Below are positions 11,661-53,579 of a DNA stretch of 64,000 bases, piece by piece. The notes beneath the pieces are model-generated. The model was not told the origin of the DNA and made no database searches. It saw only the letters and a program-made list of their open reading frames with translations. Source of the DNA: a bacterium (lineage in GTDB: Bacteria; Patescibacteriota; Minisyncoccia; Phycocordibacterales; UBA5272). Each line of letters opens with the position of its first letter. The first letter of the stretch is position 1. Location of the stretch: NCBI GenBank assembly GCA_027482685.1, contig JAIXVU010000003.1, positions 38,065 to 102,064 on the forward strand. Reading direction: 5' to 3'. A program made the translations under genes and the position numbers.

Positions 11661-12208
11661 ATGATAAAAGTATATCATGCTCTCGTTTTAATCTTGAAAA
11701 GATAATTAACATTCACCCCTTTCCTTAAAACACTCTAGGAAATCTATCTGTGCGGCGTAAGAGAATCGGTCATTGCTTTGGTATTTTGTTTCATAACTTC
11801 GTTATTCACAAAACCCTCAAAGTTTTGACCTAATGAAAAATTGACAAAAATGAGCGGTAAAAACACTGCACCCAGTTTTTACAGCTCATTTCCGTAGACC
11901 AATTTTTCGTTCGATTCTCACACAATAATACTTGGGCATTATTGTTTTACTTCTTCAAATATAATAAAACCTGGCAAGAAGCCAGCTTTTGTTGTATCTG
12001 TGCGGCGTAAGAGACGCTTCGCTATCTCACTCGTCACTTCGTTCCTCTTTAGAAACTAACGGTTTCTAACATCCGTGCTTACACTCATTGTTTTCCTCCA
12101 CGGGAAGCTACCGTTTCCCAACCACTTTCCTGTTCGATTCTCTTACGCTGCATGAGTCAATCAAATTAAAAAAACTCTGAGAAATTTTCAGAGTTTTTTT
12201 AATTTTAG

Positions 12209-12279
12209 TGCGGCGTAAGAGAATCGAACTCTTGTCTCCTGCTTGGAAGGCAGGCATTCTACCACTAAACCAACACCGC
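12209..12279 (-). tRNA. tRNA-Gly (anticodon TCC)
   Basis: cloverleaf: acceptor GCGGTGT/ACGCCGC, anticodon loop CTTCCAA, T-arm GAGTTCGATTCTC; reverse complement of window. Confidence 0.8.
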
Positions 12280-12437
12280 TTGTAAAGACTATACTACTAT
12301 ATTTTGAAAATAATTTCTAGTATAAATGAAGTGATGAGGATTATAACCGACCAAGTTTATAATTTATGGCATGAAACAAATAATTCAAGTATTGGTATTA
12401 GTGCTATTAATAATGATTTTTAAGTAAATACAAAATG

Positions 12438-12627
12438 TGCAGGGAATTTCTCCCACAAATCTTCTTTCGCCGCCGCTCAAAAAGTTCGCGGGCCGCTCCT
12501 CGTCCTCTCGCGTGCTCGCTCGGTAGTACTGCGGACTTTCGAATCCCTACGCACATGAAGCAGTTCATGTGCTGCAGTCCGACAAATACTGAAAAAGGCA
12601 ATCAAGGATTGCCTTTTTCAGTATTTG
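12438..12627. repeat. tRNA-associated ~170-190 bp non-coding element, copy A (adjacent to tRNA-Pro 3' end)
   Basis: shares ~75% identity over ~130 bp with copy B (13975-14161): ...AATTTCTCCYACAAATCTT...AAAAGTTCGCRGGCCGCTCCTC...GGACTTTCGAATCC...CGCACATGAAGCAGYTCATGTGCT; begins with direct copy of tRNA 3' end and ends in hairpin containing inverted copy of acceptor stem. Confidence 0.6.
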
Positions 12628-12700
12628 TCGGAGTGCAGGGATTCGAACCCTGAGTCTTTGGTACCCAAAACCAAAATGTTAGCCGTTACACCACACTCCG
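12628..12700 (-). tRNA. tRNA-Pro (anticodon TGG)
   Basis: acceptor CGGAGTG/CACTCCG, anticodon loop TTTGGGT, T-arm GGGTTCGAATCCC. Confidence 0.8.
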
Positions 12701-12817
12701 TAATTGTTAACACACTTTAAAGCATCGTAGTTCTTACAGCAGTTACTTTGCTTTAAATGTTACCTCATACTATCATGTTTTTAAAAAAATGCATGTATGT
12801 AAAAGCAACAGACTCCC

Positions 12818-13207
12818 CTACTCCATATGAATATTAGGAATTATCTTTACCCTCCCCTCTTCCCTCTCTGTATCTAGGTATACACAAGCTAGATCGATTT
12901 GGAACTTTCCGTTAGCATATTTTTTATGATGATTAAGATATGTTTCAACACTTATTACAATTTTTCTCCATTTATCGCTAGTTAGATTATCCTCTGGTCG
13001 TATCGTAAGACTATCTAAACCATCAAATCCTCTAACTTTTATAGTTTTAACTTCAACAAATCGTATGATTGTGTCTTTTTCGGCAATAATGTCTAGTTCT
13101 CCGTACTTTGTAGCGTAATTTGTATCAATAATGGAAAAACCCTGTTTCATAAGAAACGTTCTAGCTAATTTCTCACCTATTTTACCGATCTCGTTATGTT
13201 CTGCCAT
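12818..13207 (-). CDS. yraN: YraN/UPF0102 family endonuclease (PD-(D/E)xK fold)
   Basis: GEKLARTFLMKQGFSIIDTNYATKYGELDIIAEKDTIIRFVEVKT matches YraN family core. Confidence 0.75.
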   Translation of the reverse strand: MAEHNEIGKIGEKLARTFLMKQGFSIIDTNYATKYGELDIIAEKDTIIRFVEVKTIKVRGFDGLDSLTIRPEDNLTSDKWRKIVISVETYLNHHKKYANGKFQIDLACVYLDTEREEGRVKIIPNIHME

Positions 13208-13627
13208 AATTATACACTATTTTTATAACGTTTCACGTGAAACGAATGTCCTATTGTCTTTTCTGTGTCTATAAGCGAATCCCCATAATAGCCTTATAGA
13301 ATAGCTGTTTTTAGTTAATATAGGAAATAACGGACTAAAATAATTGACTTTTGGAGTGTCTCTTATACCCACTACCCACAGGGTTATCCCCATTTCTGTC
13401 TATTAAGACTTTTACCACAATCTGCATCTGTAATATTGATAAAAGGAACCAAGAGGATCATGTCTATGAACAGTGTAGCCCTATTACTTCTCAATGTAAA
13501 ATCGTTGTGTTAGAATAGGGGACAATGCGGTGTTGGTTTAGTGGCCTTAGCCCGACCAATAGTCGTCAGGCGTACACGTTTGTATATATATTAGGACCAT
13601 ACATATTAACGTTACTCTATAATAATT

Positions 13628-13698
13628 TGCGGTGTTGGTTTAGTGGTAGAACACGTCCTTGCCAAGGATGAGACAGGAGTTCGATTCTCCTACGCCGC
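13628..13698 (+). tRNA. tRNA-Gly (anticodon GCC)
   Basis: GCGGTGTTGGTTTAGTGGTAGAACACGTCCTTGCCAAGGATGAGACAGGAGTTCGATTCTCCTACGCCGCA cloverleaf. Confidence 0.85.
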
Positions 13699-13974
13699 AC
13701 TAAAGTAAACCAAATTGATTGAGATAGCGAAGCGTCTCCCTGGCCTCACTACTCGTTTCTTGTGAAACAGGGGGTTCTGCCAGGATATTTGGTCACCAAA
13801 CATATGTTTTTATTTCATGAATACATTACATAAAAACATTGTTTCGCGACCCCGGGAAAAGCCGACAAGCACTCGCTCTGCTCGTCTTATATACCGGTTT
13901 TTCGTTCGAATCCTGACGAAAGTAGCTTTTGCTACTTTCTGCGGAATCACAAAAACTCCTCATTTTATTCGTCG

Positions 13975-14161
13975 TTTTTGTGCGTCCGCCAGGAATTTCT
14001 CCTACAAATCTTTTCTAGCCGTCGCTCGAAAAGTTCGCAGGCCGCTCCTCATTGTTTTGCTTGCTAGCAAAACATATTCCGGACTTTCGAATCCTGGCCG
14101 CACATGAAGCAGCTCATGTGCTCGGAAGCACAAAAATAAGCTCGTTTCACTTGTTATTTTG
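13975..14161. repeat. tRNA-associated non-coding element, copy B (adjacent to tRNA-Arg 3' end); a more degenerate third copy lies at ~13850-13975
   Basis: see copy A; flanked by 22-bp direct repeat TTTTGTGCKTCCGCCAGGA(A)TT that includes the tRNA-Arg 3' end. Confidence 0.6.
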
Positions 14162-14233
14162 TGCTTCCGCCAGGATTCGAACCTGGAACAACGGTTTCGA
14201 AGACCGGTATGATATCCATTTCACTACGGAAGC
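14162..14233 (-). tRNA. tRNA-Arg (anticodon TCG)
   Basis: acceptor GCTTCCG/CGGAAGC, anticodon loop CTTCGAA, T-arm CCAGGTTCGAATCCTGG. Confidence 0.7.
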
Positions 14234-29375: not shown

Positions 29376-30686
29376 ATGATAAATATGCCGCCATTTAAAC
29401 AAGATCCAACAAACTCATCTCAAACAAATCAAGAGCCATACAGTAAAGCTAATGAAAAACTCGTTCCAGAAGGTCATCAATTTGAAAATCTTAGGAAGAC
29501 TCCAGAAGGTCTACTGTACTCATTATTACCTGACTATCATCCCGTCATTGAGCTAATAGCCAAAAATACAAAAATTACCGAGTCGCAAGCTCGAACTTTT
29601 TTTGAAATTGTTAGAGCGAGAGATGATGTCTATGAATATACCCACCGTAACGAATTCGATTTTGATAACGATGACGATACTTACAAGCACGCTAATTGTC
29701 CACGGAGAGGAAGTGGATTTATTGGTAAGTCGTCTAATTCTATTTCGGGTAAAACAGTGAATGAGAGAATCGACTCTGCAATAGATGAGGAGTGGTCTAG
29801 ACATTACAGGATTAATAGAGATAGAACAGGGGAGCTCAAGGGTTCATTTGATTATCTAAGTAATAATATTTCGAAGAGTTTTTCTGATGCCTTTGAAGCT
29901 GTCTTTGACAATGAGAAAGGGGAGCTTATTTTGGTCGATAAAGGTGATTCCTATGAGTTCAGTTTTAAAGATAAATTAGTAGAAGTTTGTGTCTACGCTG
30001 ATGGAGAGGCTAAGGTTATGGTCGGAAAAGAAGGAGAGAATATTAGTGTGCTATTCAATTATAGTTATACTGGCTATAGTATTCTTAAAAAAGGCGAGTA
30101 TACTTCAAATGACGTTTTTTATTTGGAAACACTCTACAAATCCTTTGAAAGTGCAGTGAGAAACCTCTCAGCAAGTGATAGTCGTCATAATGACTTACGA
30201 AATACTCGAAATTTTGGTTTAGGTCATAAATCTGATATGTTTTTTGAATTGATGGAAGGCGCTAAAGATGAGGAGGATTACTACGCTCGTCAAGAATCGG
30301 TAAAACTATTAGAGTTATTTGGTCTGAGATTTGATAATCATTTTAGAAGTAAGTTAAGGAAAATAAGACTTACTATGCGTGACCTGCGTAGAACTGGTCT
30401 TGATAATTTTGATGCAATTGATTCGAAGGATTTGTTTGCATCAGAAGAACTCACTTCTTTCTTCGAAGAGAATAAAAAATTGACCGAAGGTTTTGAGTTT
30501 GATGTTGTTATTCTAAATAAGCAAGAACAATCCGTTGTCAAGATGGTGCAAATTTTACAAACGAATACGAACAGAAACTCATCTCGATATAACAAACCAG
30601 ATGATGAAATGGGGATCGTTTACATGACAGAAGAAGAATTTAACAAATTTGCTGAATACACAAGGACAAATTATTTAAAAGCATAG
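29376..30686 (+). CDS. hypothetical 436-aa D/E/N/K-rich protein inserted between rpsL and rpsG
   Basis: ORF only; no recognisable domain; AT-rich; preceded by terminator-like hairpin after rpsL and followed by hairpin GAAACAAAAGC-tt-TGCTTTTGTTTC at 30862-30890. Confidence 0.45.
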   Translation: MINMPPFKQDPTNSSQTNQEPYSKANEKLVPEGHQFENLRKTPEGLLYSLLPDYHPVIELIAKNTKITESQARTFFEIVRARDDVYEYTHRNEFDFDNDDDTYKHANCPRRGSGFIGKSSNSISGKTVNERIDSAIDEEWSRHYRINRDRTGELKGSFDYLSNNISKSFSDAFEAVFDNEKGELILVDKGDSYEFSFKDKLVEVCVYADGEAKVMVGKEGENISVLFNYSYTGYSILKKGEYTSNDVFYLETLYKSFESAVRNLSASDSRHNDLRNTRNFGLGHKSDMFFELMEGAKDEEDYYARQESVKLLELFGLRFDNHFRSKLRKIRLTMRDLRRTGLDNFDAIDSKDLFASEELTSFFEENKKLTEGFEFDVVILNKQEQSVVKMVQILQTNTNRNSSRYNKPDDEMGIVYMTEEEFNKFAEYTRTNYLKA

Positions 30687-34148: not shown

Positions 34149-34464
34149 TAAATCGCGAATCTACTTTGTCGAGCGCATGTTTTTGTCAGTCGCCGTAGGT
34201 CTACTACGTCTTCCTCCAAAAACATGCGCTCTTCGCGTATCTTCATTGATGTATTATTTTTTATAAATTCTGAGGGAATTAGTATAAATGGAAATACAAT
34301 AAACGACGCCTACGGCGTCGTTTATTGTATGTATAGTATATCCACAGAACGTAAAGTTGACTTTACGTACGCACTCTATATACTATGTTAAGTGTGCTTT
34401 ACATTTGAAAAAGCACCTCATGAATACATTTACTAAGATACTAAAAATAACTAAAGATATTATT

Positions 34465-35520
34465 ATGAAAAAAATTATAGGAGTCAGCATACTTGTAACA
34501 TCACTTACACTTATGAATGCAAGTGCTATGAATGACATGAATTATGGTTCGCAAAAAGAAAAGAAGAATGAGTACAAGAAGTTTGAAAAGCATGAGAGTA
34601 ACTCACAAGGACTTGGAAAATTTACCTCTTCAGTAATGAAGCGAACAAAGGATAACGCTGGAGGAATGAGACTTATGTCACAAGATGTTGTGACTAATGT
34701 CGTACGAACACCAGGTCTCTCCACTCTTGGAGCAGCGGTACAGGCAGCAGGTCTTGTAGACACACTTAAAGGAACTGGGCCATTCACAGTATTTGCTCCA
34801 ACAAATCGTGCATTTAACGCACTTCCAGCAGGAACAGTTGCTAACCTTCTCAAGCCAGAGAACAAGAAACAGCTTACTGATATCTTGACCTATCACGTAG
34901 TTCCTGGAATCTACACTTCAGATGATATTAAAGATGGTATGACATTAACAACGGTTCAAGGGGCAACACTTCTCTTTACAATACGAAACGGACAAGTCTT
35001 TATTAATGGCAAAGCAACCGTAGTCGCACCAGATGTTATTACTTCAAATGGAGTGATTCATGTGATCGGTAGTGTACTTCTCCCACCTGCACAACCAGTT
35101 GCACAGGCACCTGCGAAGGATATTATTGATACCGCCGTATCAGTGCCAGCATTTTCTACTCTTGTAACAGCCGTACAGACAGCTGGTCTTGTAGATACAT
35201 TAAAGGGAACAGGCCCATTCACGGTATTTGCTCCAGACAATGCAGCGTTTAATGCACTTCCTGAAGGAACTGTCGCTAACCTTCTCAAACCAGAGAACAA
35301 GGCAACTCTTACAGGTATTCTCACGTACCACGTTGTACCTGGTCTTCTTAAGGCATCTGATCTAAAAAATGGTCAAGTACTTACCACGGTAGCAGGTAAA
35401 ACTCTTACTGTCACCATAGCAAACGGTCAAGTATTGATAAACGGTATACGTGTTGCAACTCCAGATGTATTGACATCAAACGGCGTTGTTCATGGTATAG
35501 CTGGTGTACTTCTCCCGTAG
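34465..35520 (+). CDS. secreted protein with two tandem fasciclin (FAS1) domains
   Basis: signal peptide MKKIIGVSILVTSLTLMNASA; duplicated TVFAPTNRAFNALP..TVANLL..LTYHVVPG FAS1 motifs (internal ~400-bp DNA repeat). Confidence 0.75.
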   Translation: MKKIIGVSILVTSLTLMNASAMNDMNYGSQKEKKNEYKKFEKHESNSQGLGKFTSSVMKRTKDNAGGMRLMSQDVVTNVVRTPGLSTLGAAVQAAGLVDTLKGTGPFTVFAPTNRAFNALPAGTVANLLKPENKKQLTDILTYHVVPGIYTSDDIKDGMTLTTVQGATLLFTIRNGQVFINGKATVVAPDVITSNGVIHVIGSVLLPPAQPVAQAPAKDIIDTAVSVPAFSTLVTAVQTAGLVDTLKGTGPFTVFAPDNAAFNALPEGTVANLLKPENKATLTGILTYHVVPGLLKASDLKNGQVLTTVAGKTLTVTIANGQVLINGIRVATPDVLTSNGVVHGIAGVLLP

Positions 35521-35634
35521 TTATTCGCGTTGTGTATAAAGTATGTACCCATAAAAGTATAGAAAGCTATACTTTTGTGGGTATTATACTGTATATACTA
35601 TACATGAATATTATTTAAGACAGCACTATTAAAT

Positions 35635-35832
35635 ATGAACAATGATGTAATGCACTTACGGCAAAAAAAAGGATGGACACAAGAAGAACTAGCTCAAAGA
35701 GTTCATGTCAGCAGGCAGACCATTATTTCTGTAGAAAAAGGGAATTATATTCCTAGTTTACTACTAGCACTTCATTTAGCAGAAGAGTTTGGTGTTTCGG
35801 TGGAAAAGCTTTTTTGGGTTAAAAAAAAGTAG
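35635..35832 (+). CDS. XRE-family helix-turn-helix transcriptional regulator (YozG-like)
   Basis: LRQKKGWTQEELAQRVHVSRQTIISVEKG HTH_XRE. Confidence 0.7.
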   Translation: MNNDVMHLRQKKGWTQEELAQRVHVSRQTIISVEKGNYIPSLLLALHLAEEFGVSVEKLFWVKKK

Positions 35833-35874
35833 TATAATAATATACACGATTTACGTGTTACTACTATTTAGCAT

Positions 35875-36240
35875 ATGCAAAAGACATTTTATGCAGAGGT
35901 TACTCTTTTAACATTACTTAGTACTGTTTTGCTTTTCTTGCTTAACCCTTTTGACATGATGATGCAAATCATGCTCTCAGTAGGAGTTGTAGCGCTATTA
36001 GTGATTTTATATATTACAAAGTTTATTATTATTTGGCGTGAAAAAGATCAAGATGAGCGTGATGCAAGCCATAGATTTTATTCCTCGTGGGTATCTTACG
36101 CTGTAACTTCGGTATTGTTATTTGTCGGTATTGTTGTGGAAGGTCTATCAGGGAATGTTAATACATGGCTTATTATTGCGTTTTCTGGATTACTTATTTC
36201 TAAGTTATGCGCACTTGTTTATTTGAGGATATATAAATAG
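35875..36240 (+). CDS. small multi-TM membrane protein (commonly paired with XRE regulator)
   Basis: 3-4 hydrophobic helices, ORF only. Confidence 0.45.
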   Translation: MQKTFYAEVTLLTLLSTVLLFLLNPFDMMMQIMLSVGVVALLVILYITKFIIIWREKDQDERDASHRFYSSWVSYAVTSVLLFVGIVVEGLSGNVNTWLIIAFSGLLISKLCALVYLRIYK

Positions 36241-36302
36241 TCGTAGGCATCTGTTGATAACACATGAGGTGTATATAAGTACTTTTAGTATACTAAAGCA
36301 TA

Positions 36303-37466
36303 ATGAAAAATCTAGTTCGTATACTTTTCCCCTTAGCCCTAGTTATATATGTTAATGCTGTGTACGCTCAAATGCCGGTCACAACATCATCTGATCAGGT
36401 CCAGATAATAAGACCACAAGAGGTTTCTTCTATCATTGTTGCCGATGTTAGCCTGACTGATGTTACATTCAAACGAGAATCTGATAACAAGATTACAGGT
36501 AGTTTCTCTCTCGTAAGCGAAATGGGAAAGCAAAATGATATAGTTTACGGAATGCATGTTATTGACGGTATGGGTAATATCGTAGATGCGTCCTCTCTAG
36601 GTAAAGTTGCAACTATACGTGAAGGGGAGATAGTCCGACGCAACTTTTCATACTCTATTCCTCCATATATATCAGGGGATAACCTTTCATTTGATCTCGT
36701 CGCAGAGACTACTGGAGGACTTCCTCTCGGGTCGCAAAAGCTACTACAAAATGTTTCCATCCCAGGAGTAGCTTCACTCCTTACATGTACAAATAAAAAT
36801 AGACAAGAGATATCTTGTGTTTCTACTATAGATACAACCCTTGTTATCGGGTATCATGTAGCATCTCCGCTTGGAAAAAACATCGTAAATAAAGAGCTTC
36901 CAGTACGAAAAAATACACCAACACCTCTCCCGGTTACATCAATTCCACCAGGAAGATATTACGTAGACGTTTTTACAAAAGATGGTAACGGCCATGCTCT
37001 TGCTTCATTTGTGGTACAAGGCTCATACGGAAATATTTTGAATACATCTATTTCTGAACTATCAGAAGGTAAGATTCTTGTAATTACAACGGTAAATGCT
37101 TCTCCTTCAAAAGGCATACAAGTTAAAAATACCATCACAGATGACAGCGGTAGAATGTGTACATCTGATCAGGTTGATGCAAGTACTTTTTTTGCAAGAC
37201 AAGAATTTCTGACTGATTGTAGGAAAGGTGCTGTTATTACCACCCTCCTCTCATCATCTGGGGTAGTGTTAAGTAGCTCTACTAATCCTTTCGATATACA
37301 GCGATATGTACAGCAATCTACAACTTCCCCATTAATTACTGAAAAAAATACAACATCTTTACGGCCTTCGCCATATCAACAGATTGCCATAGGCTTGTTT
37401 GTTGGTATTATTGCTGTAACATTCTTTTCTTTTATGAGACGTGTACGTGTGAAAGAATCATTATAA
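36303..37466 (+). CDS. hypothetical cell-surface protein (signal peptide + C-terminal TM anchor)
   Basis: N-terminal signal (LFPLALVIYVNAVYAQ), C-terminal IAIGLFVGIIAVTFFSFMRRVRVKE anchor. Confidence 0.45.
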   Translation: MKNLVRILFPLALVIYVNAVYAQMPVTTSSDQVQIIRPQEVSSIIVADVSLTDVTFKRESDNKITGSFSLVSEMGKQNDIVYGMHVIDGMGNIVDASSLGKVATIREGEIVRRNFSYSIPPYISGDNLSFDLVAETTGGLPLGSQKLLQNVSIPGVASLLTCTNKNRQEISCVSTIDTTLVIGYHVASPLGKNIVNKELPVRKNTPTPLPVTSIPPGRYYVDVFTKDGNGHALASFVVQGSYGNILNTSISELSEGKILVITTVNASPSKGIQVKNTITDDSGRMCTSDQVDASTFFARQEFLTDCRKGAVITTLLSSSGVVLSSSTNPFDIQRYVQQSTTSPLITEKNTTSLRPSPYQQIAIGLFVGIIAVTFFSFMRRVRVKESL

Positions 37467-37479
37467 GATATTTTTATAT

Positions 37480-38124
37480 ATGACACATACTTACTATAGA
37501 TATATTCGACGAAACAACTTAATTGCACTTGTGATTGCATATACGGTATTTTCACTCTTATCTTTTTCACATGCGCAAGCGCTTACTCAGTATACTTACC
37601 TCATCTCTCCGTCAAGTGGTGAATTTGCTTGGACATGTAGAACAACGTCCAATCCGGACAGATCTTCATATCTTCCTGGGCAAACTGCAACCATAGTCGT
37701 GAGTGGCTCAATTATGTATGATGCAGGAGCTCCAACATCAGGTACCGGCAACTGTCTTGTATATCTTTTTAATAATACAAGTAATACTGGACCAGCATTT
37801 GATACAGAAGCAACTTCATATGGATCAACAATGATAGCAAATACTGGAACTTTCCCAGCATCTGGCCCTATATCTCGTACATTTAGTGGTAGTTATTCGT
37901 TTACTGTGCCTGCAAGCATGTCTCCTGGATCACATACTGTACGTTTTCTTACAACTGCAGTAGGTGGAACTGTAGGTGGAGGGTCGGCTTCAGGTGTTCC
38001 TTCCGTCACAAATCCGCTCTCTTTTACAGTAACGTCTCCAGTACCACCTCCAACCGTAATACTTTTTTTCTCATTCGGGCAAATCCTCAATCTCTTTACT
38101 GAAAAGCTTTTTGCAAGTTCTTAG
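37480..38124 (+). CDS. hypothetical secreted Ser/Thr/Gly-rich protein
   Basis: signal peptide ending SHAQA; low-complexity S/T/G-rich body. Confidence 0.4.
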   Translation: MTHTYYRYIRRNNLIALVIAYTVFSLLSFSHAQALTQYTYLISPSSGEFAWTCRTTSNPDRSSYLPGQTATIVVSGSIMYDAGAPTSGTGNCLVYLFNNTSNTGPAFDTEATSYGSTMIANTGTFPASGPISRTFSGSYSFTVPASMSPGSHTVRFLTTAVGGTVGGGSASGVPSVTNPLSFTVTSPVPPPTVILFFSFGQILNLFTEKLFASS

Positions 38125-46842: not shown

Positions 46843-47118
46843 ATTGTTTATCTGCTTTGTTAAGAGAAGTTTCTCTCAGCCAGTGTACAATGGGTACGTT
46901 TCTACCGAAAACTTTCTTTCTTCACATAGCTAAAATAATTTTTGATCTTTTTGATTAAGAAGCTATATTTTCCTTTGTTCTATTGAAGTTTCAATTAGGG
47001 TAATAAAAAGAGGATGTCGCAAACATCCTCTTTTTATTTGTCATTTCTACATGAAGTAGGGAGTTTTGAAGACAGGCAACACTTGACAAGTTTATATAAA
47101 TACTGTAGGATAGGGCCC

Positions 47119-48504
47119 ATGAAAACAGGAATTAAAAACATCGTCATCGGGCTTAGTTTTTTGGGTATTTTTACTAGTTTTAGTGGTTTTGCACAAGCGG
47201 GGTATTTTAATACAACCCCAATTGAGCAGTGTGATGTTGTTATTGTAAGTAACCTATCTTTTGGTTCACGCAATCAAGATGTTCTTACTCTACAGCAGTT
47301 TCTAGCTCGCGCTGGGTACCTTCACGCTACTCCTAATGGGTACTTTGGGCATGGTACCAGATCTGCTGTACAGGCTTTTCAAGCTGACAACTACATTCGT
47401 CAGACAGGAACAGTGGGAGCTGAAACCCGTAATGCTCTAAATGAAAGACTTTGCGATGCACGGGTATCACGCTACTCATTTAACGATGATTACTATGATT
47501 ATGCGTCTGGGGTAACATATGTTGATGGATATGATCCATATGTAACTGTCGTATCTCCTACTCCTCAAATACCAGCCGTGTATGCAACTCCACAGGCAAA
47601 TATAGCAACTCGTAATACAAATGTCTCAGTTGCTACAAACAGAACTGCAGACATTACAAGTGGTTCAGTTGTCTCTCCTCTTGTTGCTTCTACTCAAACA
47701 AATTTTGGCAACCTTCCTTCTCCTGCTAGTGTTGATAGAACATCTATTGTCTTTAATCCAAGTATTGGTTATACAACTGTCATTACTCCAAAGGTGCAGT
47801 CATTAACTATCCTTACTCCGCTTTCATATACTGTATACAATGAAGGTGATACTGTGTCTCTCACATGGAGAACACAAGGACTATCACAAACACAGTTTGT
47901 AGTGCTTCTTGAAAATAAGAATACTCGTCAGAGTCGTACAGTTGCCGTTACATCTTCGATGAATGCCTCGTTTACTCTTACTAAGGATCTTCTTGATGCT
48001 GTATGTAATGGACCATGTGATGCTAATGCTCAAGCAGCATTTGGTATCGTTATTACTACTCCTGTTACTGATCTTGCGGGTACTGTAACGACTTTCAGAT
48101 CAACCCTTTCACCTATTGCAATTAAGCGTCCTTTTGCAGGGACTGGTATTGGGGCAGTATCTCTTAGTATTAAGAATCCTGTTGCTTCAAATGAAGTAGT
48201 TAAACTTTTCCTTAACTTACCTGGTATTAGTAATGTTGATGCGTATACTAACTATTCATTTAAGATTCGCGCAACATGTATTCCTGGTGTACAAGTGAGA
48301 CTAGGTGGCGTTGAATGTGGTCAAGACTTTATAATTCCAATCGGCGCTGTTTACTTCCAAAATCAAATTCCTGTAGCAATTAATAATACAACATGGTTCA
48401 GACAAGACGTTGCGTTTACCCTTACTGTTATAAATGCTCAGGGGCAAGTAGTGGGACAAGCAGAAACAAAGACTACAGTAAACGGCGCACCGTTTAGTTG
48501 GTAG
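47119..48504 (+). CDS. secreted protein with peptidoglycan-binding (PG_binding_1-like) domain and long Thr/Ser/Val-rich region
   Basis: signal peptide (IVIGLSFLGIFTSFSGFAQA); LTLQQFLARAGYL...GYFGHGTRSAVQAFQ...GTVGAETRNAL motif; terminator hairpin at 48524-48552. Confidence 0.55.
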   Translation: MKTGIKNIVIGLSFLGIFTSFSGFAQAGYFNTTPIEQCDVVIVSNLSFGSRNQDVLTLQQFLARAGYLHATPNGYFGHGTRSAVQAFQADNYIRQTGTVGAETRNALNERLCDARVSRYSFNDDYYDYASGVTYVDGYDPYVTVVSPTPQIPAVYATPQANIATRNTNVSVATNRTADITSGSVVSPLVASTQTNFGNLPSPASVDRTSIVFNPSIGYTTVITPKVQSLTILTPLSYTVYNEGDTVSLTWRTQGLSQTQFVVLLENKNTRQSRTVAVTSSMNASFTLTKDLLDAVCNGPCDANAQAAFGIVITTPVTDLAGTVTTFRSTLSPIAIKRPFAGTGIGAVSLSIKNPVASNEVVKLFLNLPGISNVDAYTNYSFKIRATCIPGVQVRLGGVECGQDFIIPIGAVYFQNQIPVAINNTTWFRQDVAFTLTVINAQGQVVGQAETKTTVNGAPFSW

Positions 48505-48565
48505 TAGATAATCTGTGATATAAAAAAACGACGCGCATCCGCGTCGTTTTTTTATTGATATAGGT

Positions 48566-49003
48566 TTATGCAAGTGCTGTTTTAACAAGAAACATAACTG
48601 CCGTTACCGCACCAACTAGTAACGTTCCCCAAAGGATATCAACGATGACAATAGACCAAGGATATTCTTTGAATACTGCGAGATTGGTGAAGTCATAAAA
48701 TGCATATAGTACAAATCCCAGAAGCGCACCGTATAGAAATGCATTTAACGTCGTAGATGCACGAGATAGTGCAAAGACCCATATACCAAGTATTCCGACG
48801 ATATACACAAGGGGAATTGCGGGAAGGTAAGGCACAAGCGATCCTTCGACTATGTTTGCATGCGCTTTTAATCCGTCTAAGTAGAACGTTTTTGCGATTT
48901 TGGCTAGCCAGACATAGTCAAGAACAGTAAAAGTAATAATACCTGCAAGCGATGTGAGTATAATTGATATCATATATGTAAAGTGTAGCATACAAAGTAA
49001 CAT
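48566..49003 (-). CDS. DUF2177-like small membrane protein
   Basis: 4 TM segments; ORF only; start possibly at internal ATG (MISIIL). Confidence 0.45.
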   Translation of the reverse strand: MLLCMLHFTYMISIILTSLAGIITFTVLDYVWLAKIAKTFYLDGLKAHANIVEGSLVPYLPAIPLVYIVGILGIWVFALSRASTTLNAFLYGALLGFVLYAFYDFTNLAVFKEYPWSIVIVDILWGTLLVGAVTAVMFLVKTALA

Positions 49004-52170: not shown

Positions 52171-52773
52171 ATGTATTCTCTTACCAAAGACGAGCTACAA
52201 TTTTTAAAGAAACTTACTACTCCGATCAAAATCCAAGACTATCTTGATAGTATAGATTTCAATTACGAGAAGAACGGCGAGACCTGTATGTCCCCACGCC
52301 GCGTAATAAAAGAGGGTAAGGCACATTGTATAGAAGGGGCGTTGCTTGCAGCTCTTGCTCTTATGGTTAACGGTGAGCGACCACTACTTCTTAATTTGAA
52401 AGTAAGACATGATGATTATGATCATGTTGTAGCACTCTATAAATGTAACGGATATTGGGGGGCAATCAGTAAGACCGCACACTCAGTCTTGCGCTTTCGC
52501 GATCCGGTATACAAGAGTGTGCGAGAACTTGCAATGTCATATTTTCACGAGTATTTTTTGGTAAGTGGTGGTGAAAAAACCATGCTTGGGTATTCAAAGC
52601 CTATTAATCTTAAAAGATACGGAACAAGTTGGATAACAGAAGAGAAAGATCTTTGGACTATCGCAGAGAAGATATTTGATGCACCGATTACAAAAGTGAT
52701 TCCAAAGGGAAATGAAAAGTATATTAAGCCTGCGACAGAACTTGAACGGAAAGCCTCGGACATAAAAAGCTAA
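52171..52773 (+). CDS. putative transglutaminase-like/papain-fold cysteine peptidase-type protein
   Basis: GKAHCIEGALLAALALMVNG ... DYDHVVALYKCNGYWGAISK resembles Cys...His...Asp core of transglutaminase-like superfamily (eye alignment only). Confidence 0.35.
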   Translation: MYSLTKDELQFLKKLTTPIKIQDYLDSIDFNYEKNGETCMSPRRVIKEGKAHCIEGALLAALALMVNGERPLLLNLKVRHDDYDHVVALYKCNGYWGAISKTAHSVLRFRDPVYKSVRELAMSYFHEYFLVSGGEKTMLGYSKPINLKRYGTSWITEEKDLWTIAEKIFDAPITKVIPKGNEKYIKPATELERKASDIKS

Positions 52774-52793
52774 TAAGGTTATATACTACATAC

Positions 52794-53579
52794 ATGTATT
52801 TTGAATCTAGTAAAAATAACAATAGTCCAATAATTTGTAACGTGCCTCATTCCGGGACTCTGATACCAGCAGAATATGAATCTGATTTTATTCTACAGGA
52901 GGACGATTTAGAGCAAGAGATTTTGTATATGGCGGATAATTATACTGACGAGCTATACAAGGAATTATTAAATATTTCAAGTTATGTACAATCTACCGTT
53001 AGTAGAATTTTGGTTGATATAGAACGATTTGAAGATGAAGAGGATGAGCCAATGTCAAAAGTCGGCATGTCAGCTTTTTACACAATGACAAGTGAAGGTG
53101 AGCTGCTCAGAACCATTACAGATGAAAGGAGGATTGAGCTTGAGAAAATATATAAAAATTATCATGACACTTTCACTGATTTAGTTACTGTTGCGCTTTC
53201 TAATTATGATACGGCTATTATTGTAGACTGTCATTCGTTTGCATCCATCCCTAGAATATACGAAAGCGATAAAGATGGAGACCGTCCAGATATTTGTATT
53301 GGGGTAGATGAGTACCATACACCAAAAGAGTTAGTAGAAAGGCTCCAAACTAACTTTGGAGAACTCGGATATAGTGTAAAAGTTAACAGTCCTTTTGCAG
53401 GGAGTATTGTACCTGCTCTATATTATCAAAAAGATATAAGAGTGATTTCAGTGATGATTGAAGTCAATAGAAAACTCTATATAGATGAACTAACATTTCA
53501 AAAATCAAAAAATTTTTCTGAAGTCTCAAGGGCTATTTCTCGAGCGGTTATAAAAAGTTTGAACGAGTTTATAAAATAA
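52794..53579 (+). CDS. N-formylglutamate amidohydrolase (FGase) family protein
   Basis: ICNVPHSGTLIP ... IIVDCHSF signature motifs of PF05013 family. Confidence 0.55.
   Translation: MYFESSKNNNSPIICNVPHSGTLIPAEYESDFILQEDDLEQEILYMADNYTDELYKELLNISSYVQSTVSRILVDIERFEDEEDEPMSKVGMSAFYTMTSEGELLRTITDERRIELEKIYKNYHDTFTDLVTVALSNYDTAIIVDCHSFASIPRIYESDKDGDRPDICIGVDEYHTPKELVERLQTNFGELGYSVKVNSPFAGSIVPALYYQKDIRVISVMIEVNRKLYIDELTFQKSKNFSEVSRAISRAVIKSLNEFIK

Follow-up and report, generated by a model that had tools for sequence, protein, structure and literature searches.

tRNA genes and units in the window

The window, by which we mean the whole 64-kb stretch of DNA that was analysed, contains a cluster of four tRNA genes found by ARAGORN and scored with the Rfam tRNA model: tRNA-Gly(TCC) at 12208-12279 on the minus strand (70.8 bits), tRNA-Pro(TGG) at 12627-12700 on the minus strand (61.8 bits), tRNA-Gly(GCC) at 13629-13700 on the plus strand (66.6 bits) and tRNA-Arg(TCG) at 14161-14233 on the minus strand (64.9 bits). 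All four genes are intact (62-71 bits). Five small non-coding units are present in the window: tRNA-Gly(TCC) and tRNA-Arg are each followed by two, and tRNA-Pro is followed by one. A remnant lies behind tRNA-Gly(GCC).

The initial annotation had reported four tRNA-Gly fragments, at 11748-11770, 11996-12012, 12133-12160 and 13518-13535. All of them are present, with coordinates a few bases away (about nine for the 5' fragment), at 11750-11768, 12000-12014, 12132-12152 and 13527-13544. The first, in minus orientation, is CGATTCTCTTACGCCGCAC and is identical to the 3' end of tRNA-Gly(TCC) at 19 of 19 positions, and the second, in the same orientation, at 15 of 15. The third, in plus orientation, is 21 nt long and forms an inverted repeat with 12209-12229, to which it is 95% complementary. 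The fourth, also in plus orientation, is the 5' fragment GCGGTGTTGGTTTAGTGG, which matches at 18 of 18 positions and lies 102 nt upstream of tRNA-Gly(GCC). When TGCGGCGTAAGAGA was searched with at most two mismatches, five matches were obtained in the window, compared with a mean of 0.24 in shuffled sequences, and none of 100 shuffles reached five. The proposed inverted pairing of the second and third fragments was recovered by software alignment, which pairs 12001-12014 with 12139-12152 at 13 of 14 positions, and the pair 12000-12014/12132-12152 does close a small non-coding unit. Further features had been overlooked: an additional degenerate inverted Gly fragment at 11909-11922, an arrangement like that of Gly at both tRNA-Pro and tRNA-Arg, and a repeat of about 130 nt behind these two genes (12443-12573 and 13992-14122, 82% identical). 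Several of the repeats are equally spaced, and a 1549-nt segmental duplication was considered as their source; this was rejected, as the similarity is confined to the units and the DNA between them is dissimilar.

The architecture was read straight from the sequences of 43 genomes, and 66 complete units were extracted. [quoted passage not shown] X' copies the last ~21 nt of the tRNA gene, that is, the T-loop, the 3' strands of the T-stem and the acceptor stem, and a few trailer bases. Usually a conserved hairpin of 9 bp (H, loop CTGC) splits X' into X'a and X'b precisely where acceptor stem and T-stem meet; H is absent from type 3 units and from L067. A unit measures about 150-260 nt and has no coding capacity; the length of type 1 is near constant across many genomes (150-156 nt). 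The cargo, of 55-180 nt, belongs to one of a few folded families; the inverted ends X'/X are 14-21 nt long, and the direct copies of X are 10-19 nt long in the window and range from 10 to at least 33 nt (L308) overall. In most units a canonical terminator, made of a stem and a T run after it, comes first and separates the fold from the tRNA. Mini-hairpin loops of the d(GCGAAGC) type, which are known from origins of single-stranded DNA phages, recur in the units, and no promoter stood out when the units were searched for one.

The two units behind tRNA-Gly(TCC) copy the X of this gene (12208-12229, minus strand; its last ~21 nt, from the T-loop to the 3' end). Unit G1 (12000-12207, minus strand), recognized by its inverted repeats, has a type 3 cargo and no H; it consists of a terminator-like hairpin (12153-12207), an uninterrupted X' (12132-12152), the cargo (12015-12131) and a direct X (12000-12014). 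The single-stranded DNA fold of its X, hairpin and X' has z = -12.3, and homologues lie behind tRNA-Gly(TCC) or tRNA-Gly(GCC) in L002, L006, L009, L019, L021, L028 and L038. Unit G2 (11750-11999, minus strand), which is older and partly decayed, has a type 2-long cargo: a hairpin region (11945-11999) with a terminator-like stem (11971-11985) is followed by H (11923-11944), X'b (11909-11922), the cargo (11769-11908) and a direct X (11750-11768). Its cargo type was found behind tRNA-Arg and tRNA-Gly in L008, L021, L024, L025, L027, L030 and L040.

Behind tRNA-Pro, unit P1 (12437-12626, minus strand), with a type 1 cargo, was detected by the covariance model at 12432-12586 (140.2 bits, E = 1.2e-44) and comprises a terminator hairpin (12583-12626), X'a (12572-12582), H (12552-12571), X'b (12538-12551), the cargo (12447-12537) and a short direct X (12437-12446); its forked DNA hairpin has z = -17.5. 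Unit A1 (13980-14160, minus strand), next to tRNA-Arg, also carries type 1 cargo, is 82% identical to P1 and was hit at 13981-14135 (158.6 bits, E = 7e-51). It is made up of an A/T hairpin with a GTGAAAC mini-hairpin loop (14133-14160), X'a (14123-14132), H (14099-14122), X'b (14086-14098), the cargo (13996-14085) and a direct X (13980-13995), with a forked hairpin at z = -8.8. The second unit of this array, A2 (13774-13979, minus strand; model hit 13772-13953, 36 bits, E = 2.6e-9), has a type 2-long cargo and is more decayed; its parts are a hairpin (13951-13979), X'a (13940-13950), H (13918-13939), X'b (13904-13917), the cargo (13787-13903) and a direct X (13774-13786), and its forked hairpin (z = -6.9) is built with the direct X copy of A1. 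The remnant behind tRNA-Gly(GCC) (13720-13739, plus strand) is a type 3 cargo end, GAGATAGCGAAGCG, joined to the start of X (TCTCC), and is truncated by the end of A2, which arrives from the opposite strand; it is supported by an inverted repeat between 12000-12032 and 13717-13749 and by an exact 18-mer in common with 12011-12028.

Linkage to tRNA genes, tailoring and turnover

The covariance model gave 86 hits in 81 related loci (1.22 Mb), and 84 of these directly adjoin a tRNA gene in the same orientation or, within an array, the unit before; the three hits in the 64-kb window are all within this tRNA cluster. The model gave a further 61 hits in metagenome loci; 45 of these are tied to tRNA genes of 21 anticodon classes, and about half of the 16 unlinked hits lie at contig ends, as read from the coordinates. 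The same linkage is seen in the copied ends themselves: inverted copies of the tRNA end occur within 150 nt downstream of 45 of 225 tRNAs and direct copies downstream of 55 of 225, compared with one each upstream.

X' and X follow the local tRNA in every anticodon class (at least 21), and an encoded CCA is copied in X' only if the gene encodes it (L292). X' is the reverse complement of the tRNA 3' end and does not match the tRNA 5' strand. These two can be separated in tRNA-Gly because of its U5·G68 pair and non-palindromic T-loop, and this test ruled out X' as a copy of the tRNA 5' strand, such as a degenerate second tRNA gene would provide. X' as a primer-binding site for mature tRNA was also rejected: it runs into the complement of the trailer, and a CCA complement is absent unless the gene encodes CCA. 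Kinship of the cargo does not follow the target: in L325, the Pro unit shares 83% identity with Arg units and only about 67% with other Pro units.

Unit content changes between close relatives. The loci L001 and L002 have intergenic DNA that is more than 90% identical, and the presence or absence of units differs between them at all four tRNAs. In L002, the tRNA-Pro site is filled with a hairpin, X', H, cargo and a perfect 16-nt direct X, after which comes the terminator that directly follows the tRNA in L001, so that L001 has the empty version of this site. In principle, deletion between direct repeats could have produced such differences by loss alone. Units also form tandem arrays, whose outer members are decayed; units with no direct X copy nearby are likewise decayed, with no recombinase-like ORF behind them.

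The cluster in the window is an array of miniature non-coding structured insertion elements specific for tRNA-gene 3' ends, a description to which we assign a probability of about 0.9. The initial annotation had proposed repeated integration at tRNA-Gly. Serial insertions at the 3' end of this gene are recorded, whereas the restriction to tRNA-Gly does not hold, given at least 21 anticodon classes. It had also taken duplicated tRNA 3' ends as an integrase footprint; direct repeats do flank each unit, in the manner of integrase-type insertion sites, but they are not scars of an integrase specific for tRNA-Gly. Nor are the fragments scars of excised islands: each forms an integral part of a complete small element whose length and fold are conserved and which occupies the same position in many genomes.

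A conserved fold on the tRNA-sense strand

In the alignment, 93.1% of the cells are paired, compared with 36-46% in slid controls, and none of 500 shuffles reached the observed value. Compensatory changes are present at 36 of the 44 predicted pairs. G·T pairs far exceed A·C pairs in three comparisons (70 against 9, 28 against 5 and 32 against 4), with 32 against 4 in the type 2-long fold of 76 pairs, and the fold therefore sits on the tRNA-sense strand. Among mismatches between X' and its own X, G·T pairs also outnumber A·C pairs (89 against 56), a weak bias that settles nothing. The closing helix of the fold is formed by X' paired with the direct X copy, conserved G·U-type pairs are found at columns 105:139 and 107:137, and a nested module has a GNRA-like GUGA loop. 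When X, hairpin, X'a, H and X'b are folded together as DNA, a forked Y shape is predicted (z from -6.9 to -17.5). In terms of GC skew, the fold strand of the intact window units is the leading-strand template and not the strand exposed at replication forks. With Rfam 15, at gathering and at permissive thresholds, only the four tRNAs passed, and the sub-threshold matches were to generic long-hairpin (miRNA-precursor) models.

Possible modes of movement

The units very probably are, or once were, mobile DNA, and we infer non-autonomous integrating elements. At 150-260 nt they are too short for an integrase gene, and no recombinase was seen inside any unit examined. A Pfam scan of almost all non-nested ORFs of at least 120 aa in the window gave no integrase, transposase or reverse transcriptase, and among the same ORFs there is no tyrosine integrase targeting tRNA-Gly, for which a search had been suggested in the initial annotation. 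No recurrent recombinase was found beside metagenome units among the 25 most frequent families of 135 ORFs, and neither the loci examined nor IMG/VR contained an autonomous relative: scans of IMG/VR for a viral origin, with the H 16-mer and the type 2 14-mer, gave chance matches only, and BLAST of the window units against 210 IMG/VR loci gave no match. Large gaps in the tRNA clusters of L038, L024 and L046 hold ordinary genes without a recombinase, whose translations we take to be histidine-phosphatase-like, TrmB-like regulator, NUDIX-like, ribbon-helix-helix and motif-less proteins. The only large serine recombinase encountered, next to tRNA-Leu in L307, seems unrelated. Units in excised or circular form were not seen, and a full-text search of the literature found no description of such elements.

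The closest known layout is that of CTXphi, in which two inverted target-site copies about 90 nt apart fold into a forked hairpin in single-stranded DNA, and whose integration leaves one functional and two non-functional sites (PMC3089051). Like CTXphi and other integrative elements exploiting Xer recombination (IMEX), the units have opposed target-like copies, a few tens of bases apart, that give a forked hairpin, and they encode no recombinase; their integrated state (Gly, Pro and Arg in the window; 66 units) has a functional site, an inverted copy and a direct non-functional copy, and in both cases there are tandem arrays at the target and variants whose attachment sites are matched to target variants (PMC3089051). 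Unlike CTXphi, the units target the 3' ends of many tRNA genes rather than dif, the site of the XerC/XerD-dependent reaction, are non-coding elements of 150-260 nt rather than phage genomes, and have a conserved hairpin as the side arm where CTXphi has an unpaired central bulge.

We favour, tentatively and at somewhat less than even odds, a mechanism in which the element moves as a folded single strand, with its hairpin serving as the attachment site. X, the hairpin loop and X' would form a forked hairpin, a double-stranded mimic of the tRNA-gene 3' end with H as a side arm, and an enzyme supplied in trans and encoded elsewhere, possibly an Xer-like or integron-integrase-like tyrosine recombinase or else a single-strand transposase, would carry out strand exchange between the forked hairpin and the gene. 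The expected product is one functional tRNA end with one inverted and one direct copy, the same three-site layout as that of CTXphi at dif. The tRNA gene is kept intact and new units enter beside it, so that arrays grow while outer units decay. How X' and X change when a cargo moves to another tRNA is left unexplained by this attachment-site mechanism; exchange of cargo between resident units is a possible way to a new X'/X specification. The G·U-type pairs and the GUGA loop, more typical of RNA, also speak against it, as do the strand assignment from GC skew and the failure to find an enzyme, an autonomous relative or a circular form; folding tools do not distinguish an RNA fold from a single-stranded DNA fold.

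A more novel reading, possible but somewhat doubtful, is that the units represent a new class of mobile element in which base pairing selects the target: the split guide, X'a and X'b, of a non-coding 150-260-nt unit would pair with any tRNA-gene 3' end. Pairing would direct oriented insertion just behind the undamaged gene, a host or helper enzyme would supply the chemistry, and guide and terminal target copy would be re-specified upon the move to a new tRNA. The units are unlike IS110 elements, whose bridge RNA, from a non-coding end, has two loops matching target and donor flanks on opposite strands, with a 2-nt core and a DEDD/serine recombinase; in the units, X'a and X'b are both complementary to the same strand of a contiguous 21-nt target, and there is no recombinase gene.

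Other known elements resemble the units in part. Islands and prophages at tRNA genes also insert in the 3' part, leave the gene intact, are bounded by a direct repeat starting in the T-loop and accrete serially; unlike these, the units have no integrase or coding cargo, are about 100 times smaller, contain an internal inverted target copy and a conserved fold, and serve at least 21 anticodon classes with one family. Integron cassettes share an imperfect-palindrome site (attC) that would act as a strand-specific folded single strand, tandem stacking beside a fixed entry point with the newest first, and an enzyme that comes from elsewhere. The attC site has a conserved R''/R' core, RYYYAAC ... 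GTTRRRY, and integrons have attI and the integron integrase in the locus. By inspection, the base of the unit hairpin, the T-loop GTTCGAA, does not fit GTTRRRY; no attI or integron integrase was seen, the cargo of the units is a folded non-coding segment and their entry point is a tRNA gene. The initial annotation had compared the inverted pair with the terminal inverted repeats of a MITE. Bacterial MITEs are indeed small and non-coding, with inverted ends of 14-21 nt, many copies and variable presence between relatives, but the inverted ends of the units copy the target itself and change with it, insertion is strictly oriented and site-specific, an extra terminator-like hairpin lies outside the inverted pair, and no parent insertion sequence is known. 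A MITE would also be expected to have a short target-site duplication of fixed length and an autonomous insertion sequence with matching ends; in the units, the direct repeat is 10 to at least 33 nt long and takes in the inverted end.

We regard it as unlikely that the units are RNA genes linked to tRNAs and transcribed by read-through from the tRNA promoter to give a stable structured RNA of about 155 nt, in which the helix of X' and direct X would mimic the acceptor/T-arm, RNase P, RNase Z and the CCA-adding enzyme would trim the ends, and spread to new tRNAs would go through an RNA intermediate or be rare. The strong covariation, the excess of G·U-type over A·C pairs on the tRNA-sense strand, the strict co-orientation with the upstream tRNA, the conserved G·U positions, the GNRA-like loop and the closure of the fold by X' and direct X all agree with it, and read-through is plausible behind tRNA-Arg because the hairpin there is a weak A/T stem. 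However, a canonical terminator separates tRNA and fold in most units and no promoter stands out. X' and X copy the DNA of the gene, including trailer bases, and not the mature tRNA, and a generic processing helix would need no match to the neighbouring tRNA. Since outer units decay and L001 lacks units, the RNA would moreover be dispensable. Single-strand "peel and paste" elements of the IS200/IS605 kind, here without their own transposase, are a still less probable source. In that case H would bind the transposase, X'a and X'b at its foot would be an unusually long guide pairing with X, cuts would be made after X at both ends of the unit, and the excised circle would insert 3' of a single-stranded X, exposed for example on the non-template strand during heavy transcription of a tRNA gene. 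IS200/IS605 elements and the non-autonomous, palindrome-associated elements derived from them are hairpin-dependent, with bases beside the hairpin complementary to the cut site, a principle reportedly established for the guide next to the hairpin in IS608; they insert 3' of a defined sequence, can be lost precisely and depend on a strand-specific structure. This suits the insertion of the units immediately 3' of X with the tRNA intact, the identity of unit end and target, the single conserved hairpin with its covarying stems, conserved loop and complementary flanks, the d(GCGAAGC)-type loops, and the empty site of L001, which precise loss would restore. The derivatives, however, carry a subterminal hairpin at each end, lack inverted ends and a duplication, occur in genomes with a Y1 HUH transposase and use guides of about 4 nt; the units have guides of 9+12 nt, a single tRNA-proximal hairpin that is missing in some (type 3, L067), inverted ends plus a direct repeat with a full target copy at the end, and no TnpA or other Y1 transposase among the ORFs screened in the window and loci (for the 135 metagenome-locus ORFs, among the 25 most frequent families). 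The problem of retargeting is the same as for the attachment-site mechanism.

Ordinary double-stranded integration and excision by tRNA-specific tyrosine integrases, leaving attachment-site scars and deletion remnants, was the view of the initial annotation and is now very improbable. Direct repeats of tRNA 3' ends that start in the T-loop are its classic signature, gene-bearing islands occur in this cluster in L038, L024 and L046, and the serine recombinase of L307 adjoins a tRNA gene. Deletion remnants, however, would be random, and the units have a constant length (150-156 nt in type 1) and a conserved fold; one set of cargo families serves 21 anticodon classes, neither an integrase gene nor a pseudogene of one is present within or next to any unit, and X' and H would have no role. 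Chance matches and decayed tandem duplicates of tRNA genes are refuted. Although tRNA genes are short and have internal inverted repeats, and short two-copy repeats often arise by chance, the five matches against 0.24 expected, the downstream/upstream asymmetries of 55:1 and 45:1 and the 147 covariance-model hits in related and metagenome loci argue otherwise, and copying is limited to the final ~21 nt of the tRNA, with one layout throughout.

Elements that insert behind tRNA genes and duplicate the 3' end are already known, and the new part is a gene-less version of about one hundredth the size, with a conserved fold and a built-in inverted target copy. The family occurs in this bacterium and its relatives in the candidate phyla radiation (CPR), whose genomes are otherwise small and streamlined; the units account for assembly breaks at the tRNA clusters of these genomes and for the high variability of the tRNA-cluster spacers, and the covariance model (R1) is a ready marker for a genome-wide census. 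If the hairpin is an attachment site, the CTXphi/integron principle of folded single-strand recombination would extend to tRNA genes, and a recombinase reading both structure and target match would be implied, a prospect relevant to programmable insertion. Should the fold function as RNA, the units would be a large new family of tRNA-linked structured RNAs.

Duplications were also found on the 5' side, at 11 of 287 tRNAs compared with none in the downstream control. Both Gly genes of L038 and, in other places, Pro, Asp and Ser genes have a 5'-end copy about 101 nt upstream; an 85-nt tRNA-Gly of L038 is an artefact of masked Ns. In the window, this duplication (13527-13628, plus strand) consists of the 18-nt copy of the tRNA-Gly 5' end at 13527-13544 and an 84-nt insert at 13545-13628, which now carries a TATAAT box in front of the intact tRNA-Gly(GCC).

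tRNA cluster and the units behind its genes

The window is part of a bacterial chromosome, and Pfam scans of its ORFs found housekeeping genes, which encode NusA, trigger factor, ClpP, RNase Y, HU, YraN, CCA-adding enzyme, RecJ, DinB, ComEC, EF-G, EF-Tu, the ribosomal-protein operon and SecY. Its four tRNA genes form a single cluster: tRNA-Gly(TCC) (12208-12279, minus strand), tRNA-Pro(TGG) (12627-12700, minus), tRNA-Gly(GCC) (13629-13700, plus) and tRNA-Arg(TCG) (14161-14233, minus). About 80 metagenome-assembled genomes of relatives were obtained through the CCA-enzyme gene, with protein identities of 76-83% in about 42 and 56-58% in the remainder, and the four-tRNA cluster is kept in all of them. 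They are labelled Nomurabacteria, Paceibacterota, Parcubacteria, Kaiserbacteria, Adlerbacteria or Patescibacteria, and for many of the nearest relatives the label is "uncultured Candidatus Saccharibacteria"; these are names of CPR lineages.

Small insertions (units) lie behind these tRNA genes, and their layout was derived from the tRNA-sense strand of the window and 42 relatives. [quoted passage not shown] An inverted copy of X (X') comes next, interrupted by the conserved hairpin H, whose 9-bp stem carries the loop CTGC (e.g., AGCACATGAACTGCTTCATGTGCG): X'a, often running on from the T-run, is complementary to the acceptor 3' strand, and X'b, beyond H, to the T-loop and the T-stem's 3' strand. 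A non-coding cargo and a direct copy of X complete the unit. Cargo is about 94 nt in type 1, 53-62 nt in type 2b, 150-180 nt in type 2-long and 121-150 nt in type 3, which is found only behind tRNA-Gly and has X' unsplit by H; rarer types also exist. The window contains five units and one remnant: G1 (type 3) and G2 (type 2-long) behind tRNA-Gly(TCC), P1 (type 1) behind tRNA-Pro, A1 (type 1) and A2 (type 2-long) behind tRNA-Arg, and the end of a type-3 unit behind tRNA-Gly(GCC). Since the outer unit of each array is more decayed (A2 compared with A1, G2 compared with G1), new units appear to enter beside the tRNA.

The tRNA-Gly fragments that the initial annotation read as integration scars or a tRNA-derived element with terminal inverted repeats are real, although it placed the 3' fragments 1-8 bases and the 5' fragment about 9 bases off. 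Copies of the 3' end in gene orientation lie at 11750-11768 (19/19) and 12000-12014 (15/15), an inverted copy, 95% complementary, at 12132-12152, and an 18-nt copy of the 5' end at 13527-13544. A 14-mer of the tRNA-Gly 3' end, with up to two mismatches, occurs five times in the window against 0.24 expected, a number reached by 0 of 100 shuffles. The inverted pair does pair (13/14), and the segment thought to be bounded by terminal repeats is the cargo of G1 closed by its X'/X pair. The phenomenon is not specific to tRNA-Gly, because tRNA-Pro and tRNA-Arg show the matching arrangement. Their downstream sides have in common a repeat of about 130 nt (12443-12573 and 13992-14122, 82% identical), in both cases with an inverted copy before it and a direct copy of the tRNA's own 3' end flanking it.

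Smaller modules were also seen. Two small hairpins, one of them capped by a GUGA loop, make up a nested module of roughly 30 nt, GGCTGATTAGTAAATCATGCCGTGAGGCC, which occurs 14 times (in the related or metagenome loci L003, L010, L018, L020, L028, L029, L038, L074, L301, L305, L307 and L335). Those occurrences that were placed are all inside units, at varying positions (within type-1 or type-3 cargo, or directly after H), and the module looks like a still smaller insert inside the inserts. The first hairpin and the hairpins of the cargo repeatedly have loops reading GA-GCGAAGC-GAG, GTGAAAC or ACGAAGT (e.g., at 14140-14152 and 12015-12028 of the window). They belong to the d(GCGAAGC) type of GNA tri-loop mini-hairpin, which is unusually stable in single-stranded DNA and present at origins of single-stranded DNA phages.

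Linkage to tRNA genes, breadth and turnover

Among 225 tRNAs from 81 related sources, the final 10 nt recur in inverted form within 150 nt downstream of 45 tRNAs and upstream of one, and a direct 14-nt copy was found within 500 nt downstream of 55 and upstream of one. The covariance model of the type-1 unit (R1) gave 86 matches in 1.22 Mb, of which 76 begin at most 100 nt from the 3' end of a co-oriented tRNA gene, seven are second or third units of arrays, one more overlaps a tRNA end, and just two lie elsewhere, behind gene islands downstream of tRNA-Gly. Only three matches were obtained in the 64-kb window, all containing H and all in the tRNA cluster. The tRNA fragments are not chance matches, and their linkage to tRNA genes is strict.

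A single search of public metagenomes for the 21-nt sequence of H yielded 46 loci. H is 33-72 nt behind a tRNA gene in about 35 of these (166 nt in one), with X'a and X'b complementary to the local tRNA each time. R1 detected 61 units in the 46 loci, and the 45 linked to tRNA genes represent 21 anticodon classes, covering Arg, Gly, Pro, Phe, Met, His, Lys, Glu, Asp, Ser, Ile, Gln, Trp, Asn, Val and Cys; about half of the remaining 16 are cut by contig ends, as read from their coordinates. At least four units lie on one 775-kb metagenome contig, and distant relatives labelled Kaiserbacteria or Adlerbacteria (55-65% G+C) also carry units.

Turnover is evident in a close pair of relatives, L001 and L002, with over 90% identity in their aligned intergenic DNA: units are absent from all four cluster tRNAs in L001, and in L002 each of these tRNAs has one. 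The insert at tRNA-Pro of L002 runs from the hairpin through X'a, H, X'b and the type-1 cargo to a perfect copy of TCCCTGCACTCCGACC, past which lies the terminator that directly follows tRNA-Pro in L001. The spacer between tRNA-Gly(GCC) and tRNA-Arg measures about 72-80 nt in L029 and L001, 460 nt in the window and 1170 nt in L038. Many relatives' contigs (L004, L007, L014, L022, L023, L031-L037 and L041) stop close to the CCA-enzyme gene, no more than about 700 nt and often some 100 nt upstream of it, where the unit behind tRNA-Arg lies; this is expected for a repeat, and the units thus break assemblies.

Fold, origin of the copies and candidate mechanisms

The type-1 consensus structure, from 19 units (the alignment labelled A2), has five elements: H, a helix in which X'b and the direct X copy pair to close the fold, a YAGCAR-loop hairpin, a long A/T-rich hairpin and connecting stems. 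Paired cells amount to 93.1%, compared with 36-46% when partners are slid; both sides have changed at 36 of 44 pairs, and the covariation score reaches 0.667, compared with 0.168 at most, with 0 of 500 shuffles attaining the observed values. G·T pairs far outnumber A·C pairs (70 and 9 in type 1, 28 and 5 in type 2b, 32 and 4 in type 2-long), so selection for the fold acts on the tRNA-sense strand, as RNA or single-stranded DNA. Rfam holds no family matching the units. In computed DNA folds, X, the first hairpin, X'a, H and X'b form a forked hairpin (z -6.9 to -17.5), and within arrays the direct X copy of one unit supplies the X part for the next.

tRNA-Gly, with its U5·G68 wobble pair and non-palindromic T-loop TTCGATT, is informative on the source of X'. 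Its X' reads ...GCGGCGT AAGAG AATCGAA, the reverse complement of the 3' end, and this excludes the tRNA's own 5' strand plus T-loop. Because X'a continues into the trailer complement beyond the tRNA end, the direct repeat of L002 runs 7 nt into the trailer, and the CCA complement occurs within X'a only where the gene encodes CCA (L292), the copies come from the gene and not from mature tRNA. By inspection, the first hairpin and X'a are tRNA-specific, and H and the cargo types are common to different tRNAs. Cargo kinship does not track the target: in L325, the Pro unit shares 83% identity with Arg units of L009 and L335 and about 67% with other Pro units. Either whole units switch tRNA, re-specifying X' and X, or resident units exchange cargo.

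No integrase, transposase or reverse transcriptase was found in the window, inside any unit or recurring beside units, and the units are therefore non-autonomous. Their order is functional target, loop, inverted copy, cargo and direct copy. The dif-like sites of CTXphi, an inverted pair separated by about 90 nt, adopt a forked hairpin, and after integration a functional dif is accompanied by two non-functional copies (PMC3089051); the unit layout is that of the product of integrating such a folded single-stranded hairpin site. By this analogy, X, loop and X' would form the site through which a small single-stranded element attaches, and recombination of the folded site with the tRNA gene would depend on a trans-supplied enzyme. 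We prefer this reading, with a probability of roughly 0.35-0.4, although neither an enzyme nor a circular form was found, the fold may act as RNA or as DNA, and the reading does not account for retargeting.

A read-through RNA gene, whose X'/X helix would mimic the acceptor/T-arm helix for end processing, is a rival that we consider rather unlikely. Single-strand transposition like that of IS200/IS605, in which H would be the binding hairpin and X'a/X'b would serve as a long guide, is improbable, and ordinary integrase scars, proposed initially for the duplicated 3' ends, are very improbable. Chance matches have a negligible probability. Targeting of tRNA 3' ends with duplication is a known theme, and CTXphi and integron attC sites are precedents for a folded single-strand site in the preferred reading. 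What is described neither in Rfam 15 nor in the literature searched by full text is the combination seen here: units of 150-260 nt without genes, whose fold is conserved, whose internal inverted target copy is split by a conserved hairpin, and which lie behind tRNAs of 21 anticodon classes. That the units represent a new class of pairing-guided element is a tentative and somewhat doubtful proposal.

Other variation in the window and its cluster

Extra genes interrupt operons of the window that are otherwise classical (29376-30686, 34357-38124, 47014-49003, 52171-53579 and 57205-59931). rpsL and rpsG are separated by a 436-aa ORF with no Pfam match, fusA and tuf by a fasciclin protein and three ORFs with no match, and a 908-aa homologue of TraG/VirD4-like coupling proteins (weak matches) lies after map; the ribosomal-protein operon is interrupted by a peptidoglycan-binding protein and a DUF2177 protein.

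Cluster tRNA genes flip singly between close relatives (window 12208-14233, L001-L040), with no flanking remnants there that would account for it: the plus strand carries tRNA-Pro in L001, L002, L003, L010, L012 and L017, tRNA-Gly(TCC) in L005, L026 and L029, and tRNA-Arg in L028, and the order of Gly and Pro is exchanged in L026. The acceptor stem of tRNA-Arg(TCG) varies with compensation among the window and L001-L042 (GCTTCCG, GCTCCCG, GCTCCCA, GCTTCCA and GCTCTCG, with matching 3' strands), and the X' and X copies in units track these changes. A palindrome of the GTTTCACGTGAAAC or CGTTACATGTGTAACG type, which may be a protein-binding site, is present at 13224-13243, 13754-13772 and 13140-13158, its sites being between the convergent tRNA-Gly(GCC) and tRNA-Arg, ahead of the YraN gene and inside YraN (13140-13158); the spacer copy is also present in L001, L005, L013, L017, L020, L024 and L026.

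A second type of insertion lies on the 5' side, where a copy of the tRNA's first 18-37 nt is found about 101-112 nt upstream of the intact gene (window 13527-13628; L038, L011, L020, L029, L040, L326 and L328). The insert is partly conserved and carries a promoter-like box between copy and gene. Such copies occur at 11 of 287 tRNAs and at none in the downstream control.

Gene islands of 2-2.7 kb, in which no recombinase was found, lie in the cluster of L038 (3244-5997), L024 (6583-8776) and L046 (4400-6933). According to their translations, the L038 island encodes a histidine-phosphatase-like protein together with a TrmB-like regulator, and a NUDIX-like gene lies immediately beyond the gap; the L024 island encodes a 532-aa protein, and that of L046 a ribbon-helix-helix protein and two unknowns. 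TrmB (7 of 135 ORFs) and NUDIX (4 of 135) domains recur near units in metagenome loci. A large serine recombinase of 532 aa with Resolvase, Recombinase and Zn-ribbon domains is encoded in L307 (6046-7685), on the 775-kb contig that also holds several units; its gene end meets the 3' end of tRNA-Leu(TAA), and it is probably a separate integrated element.
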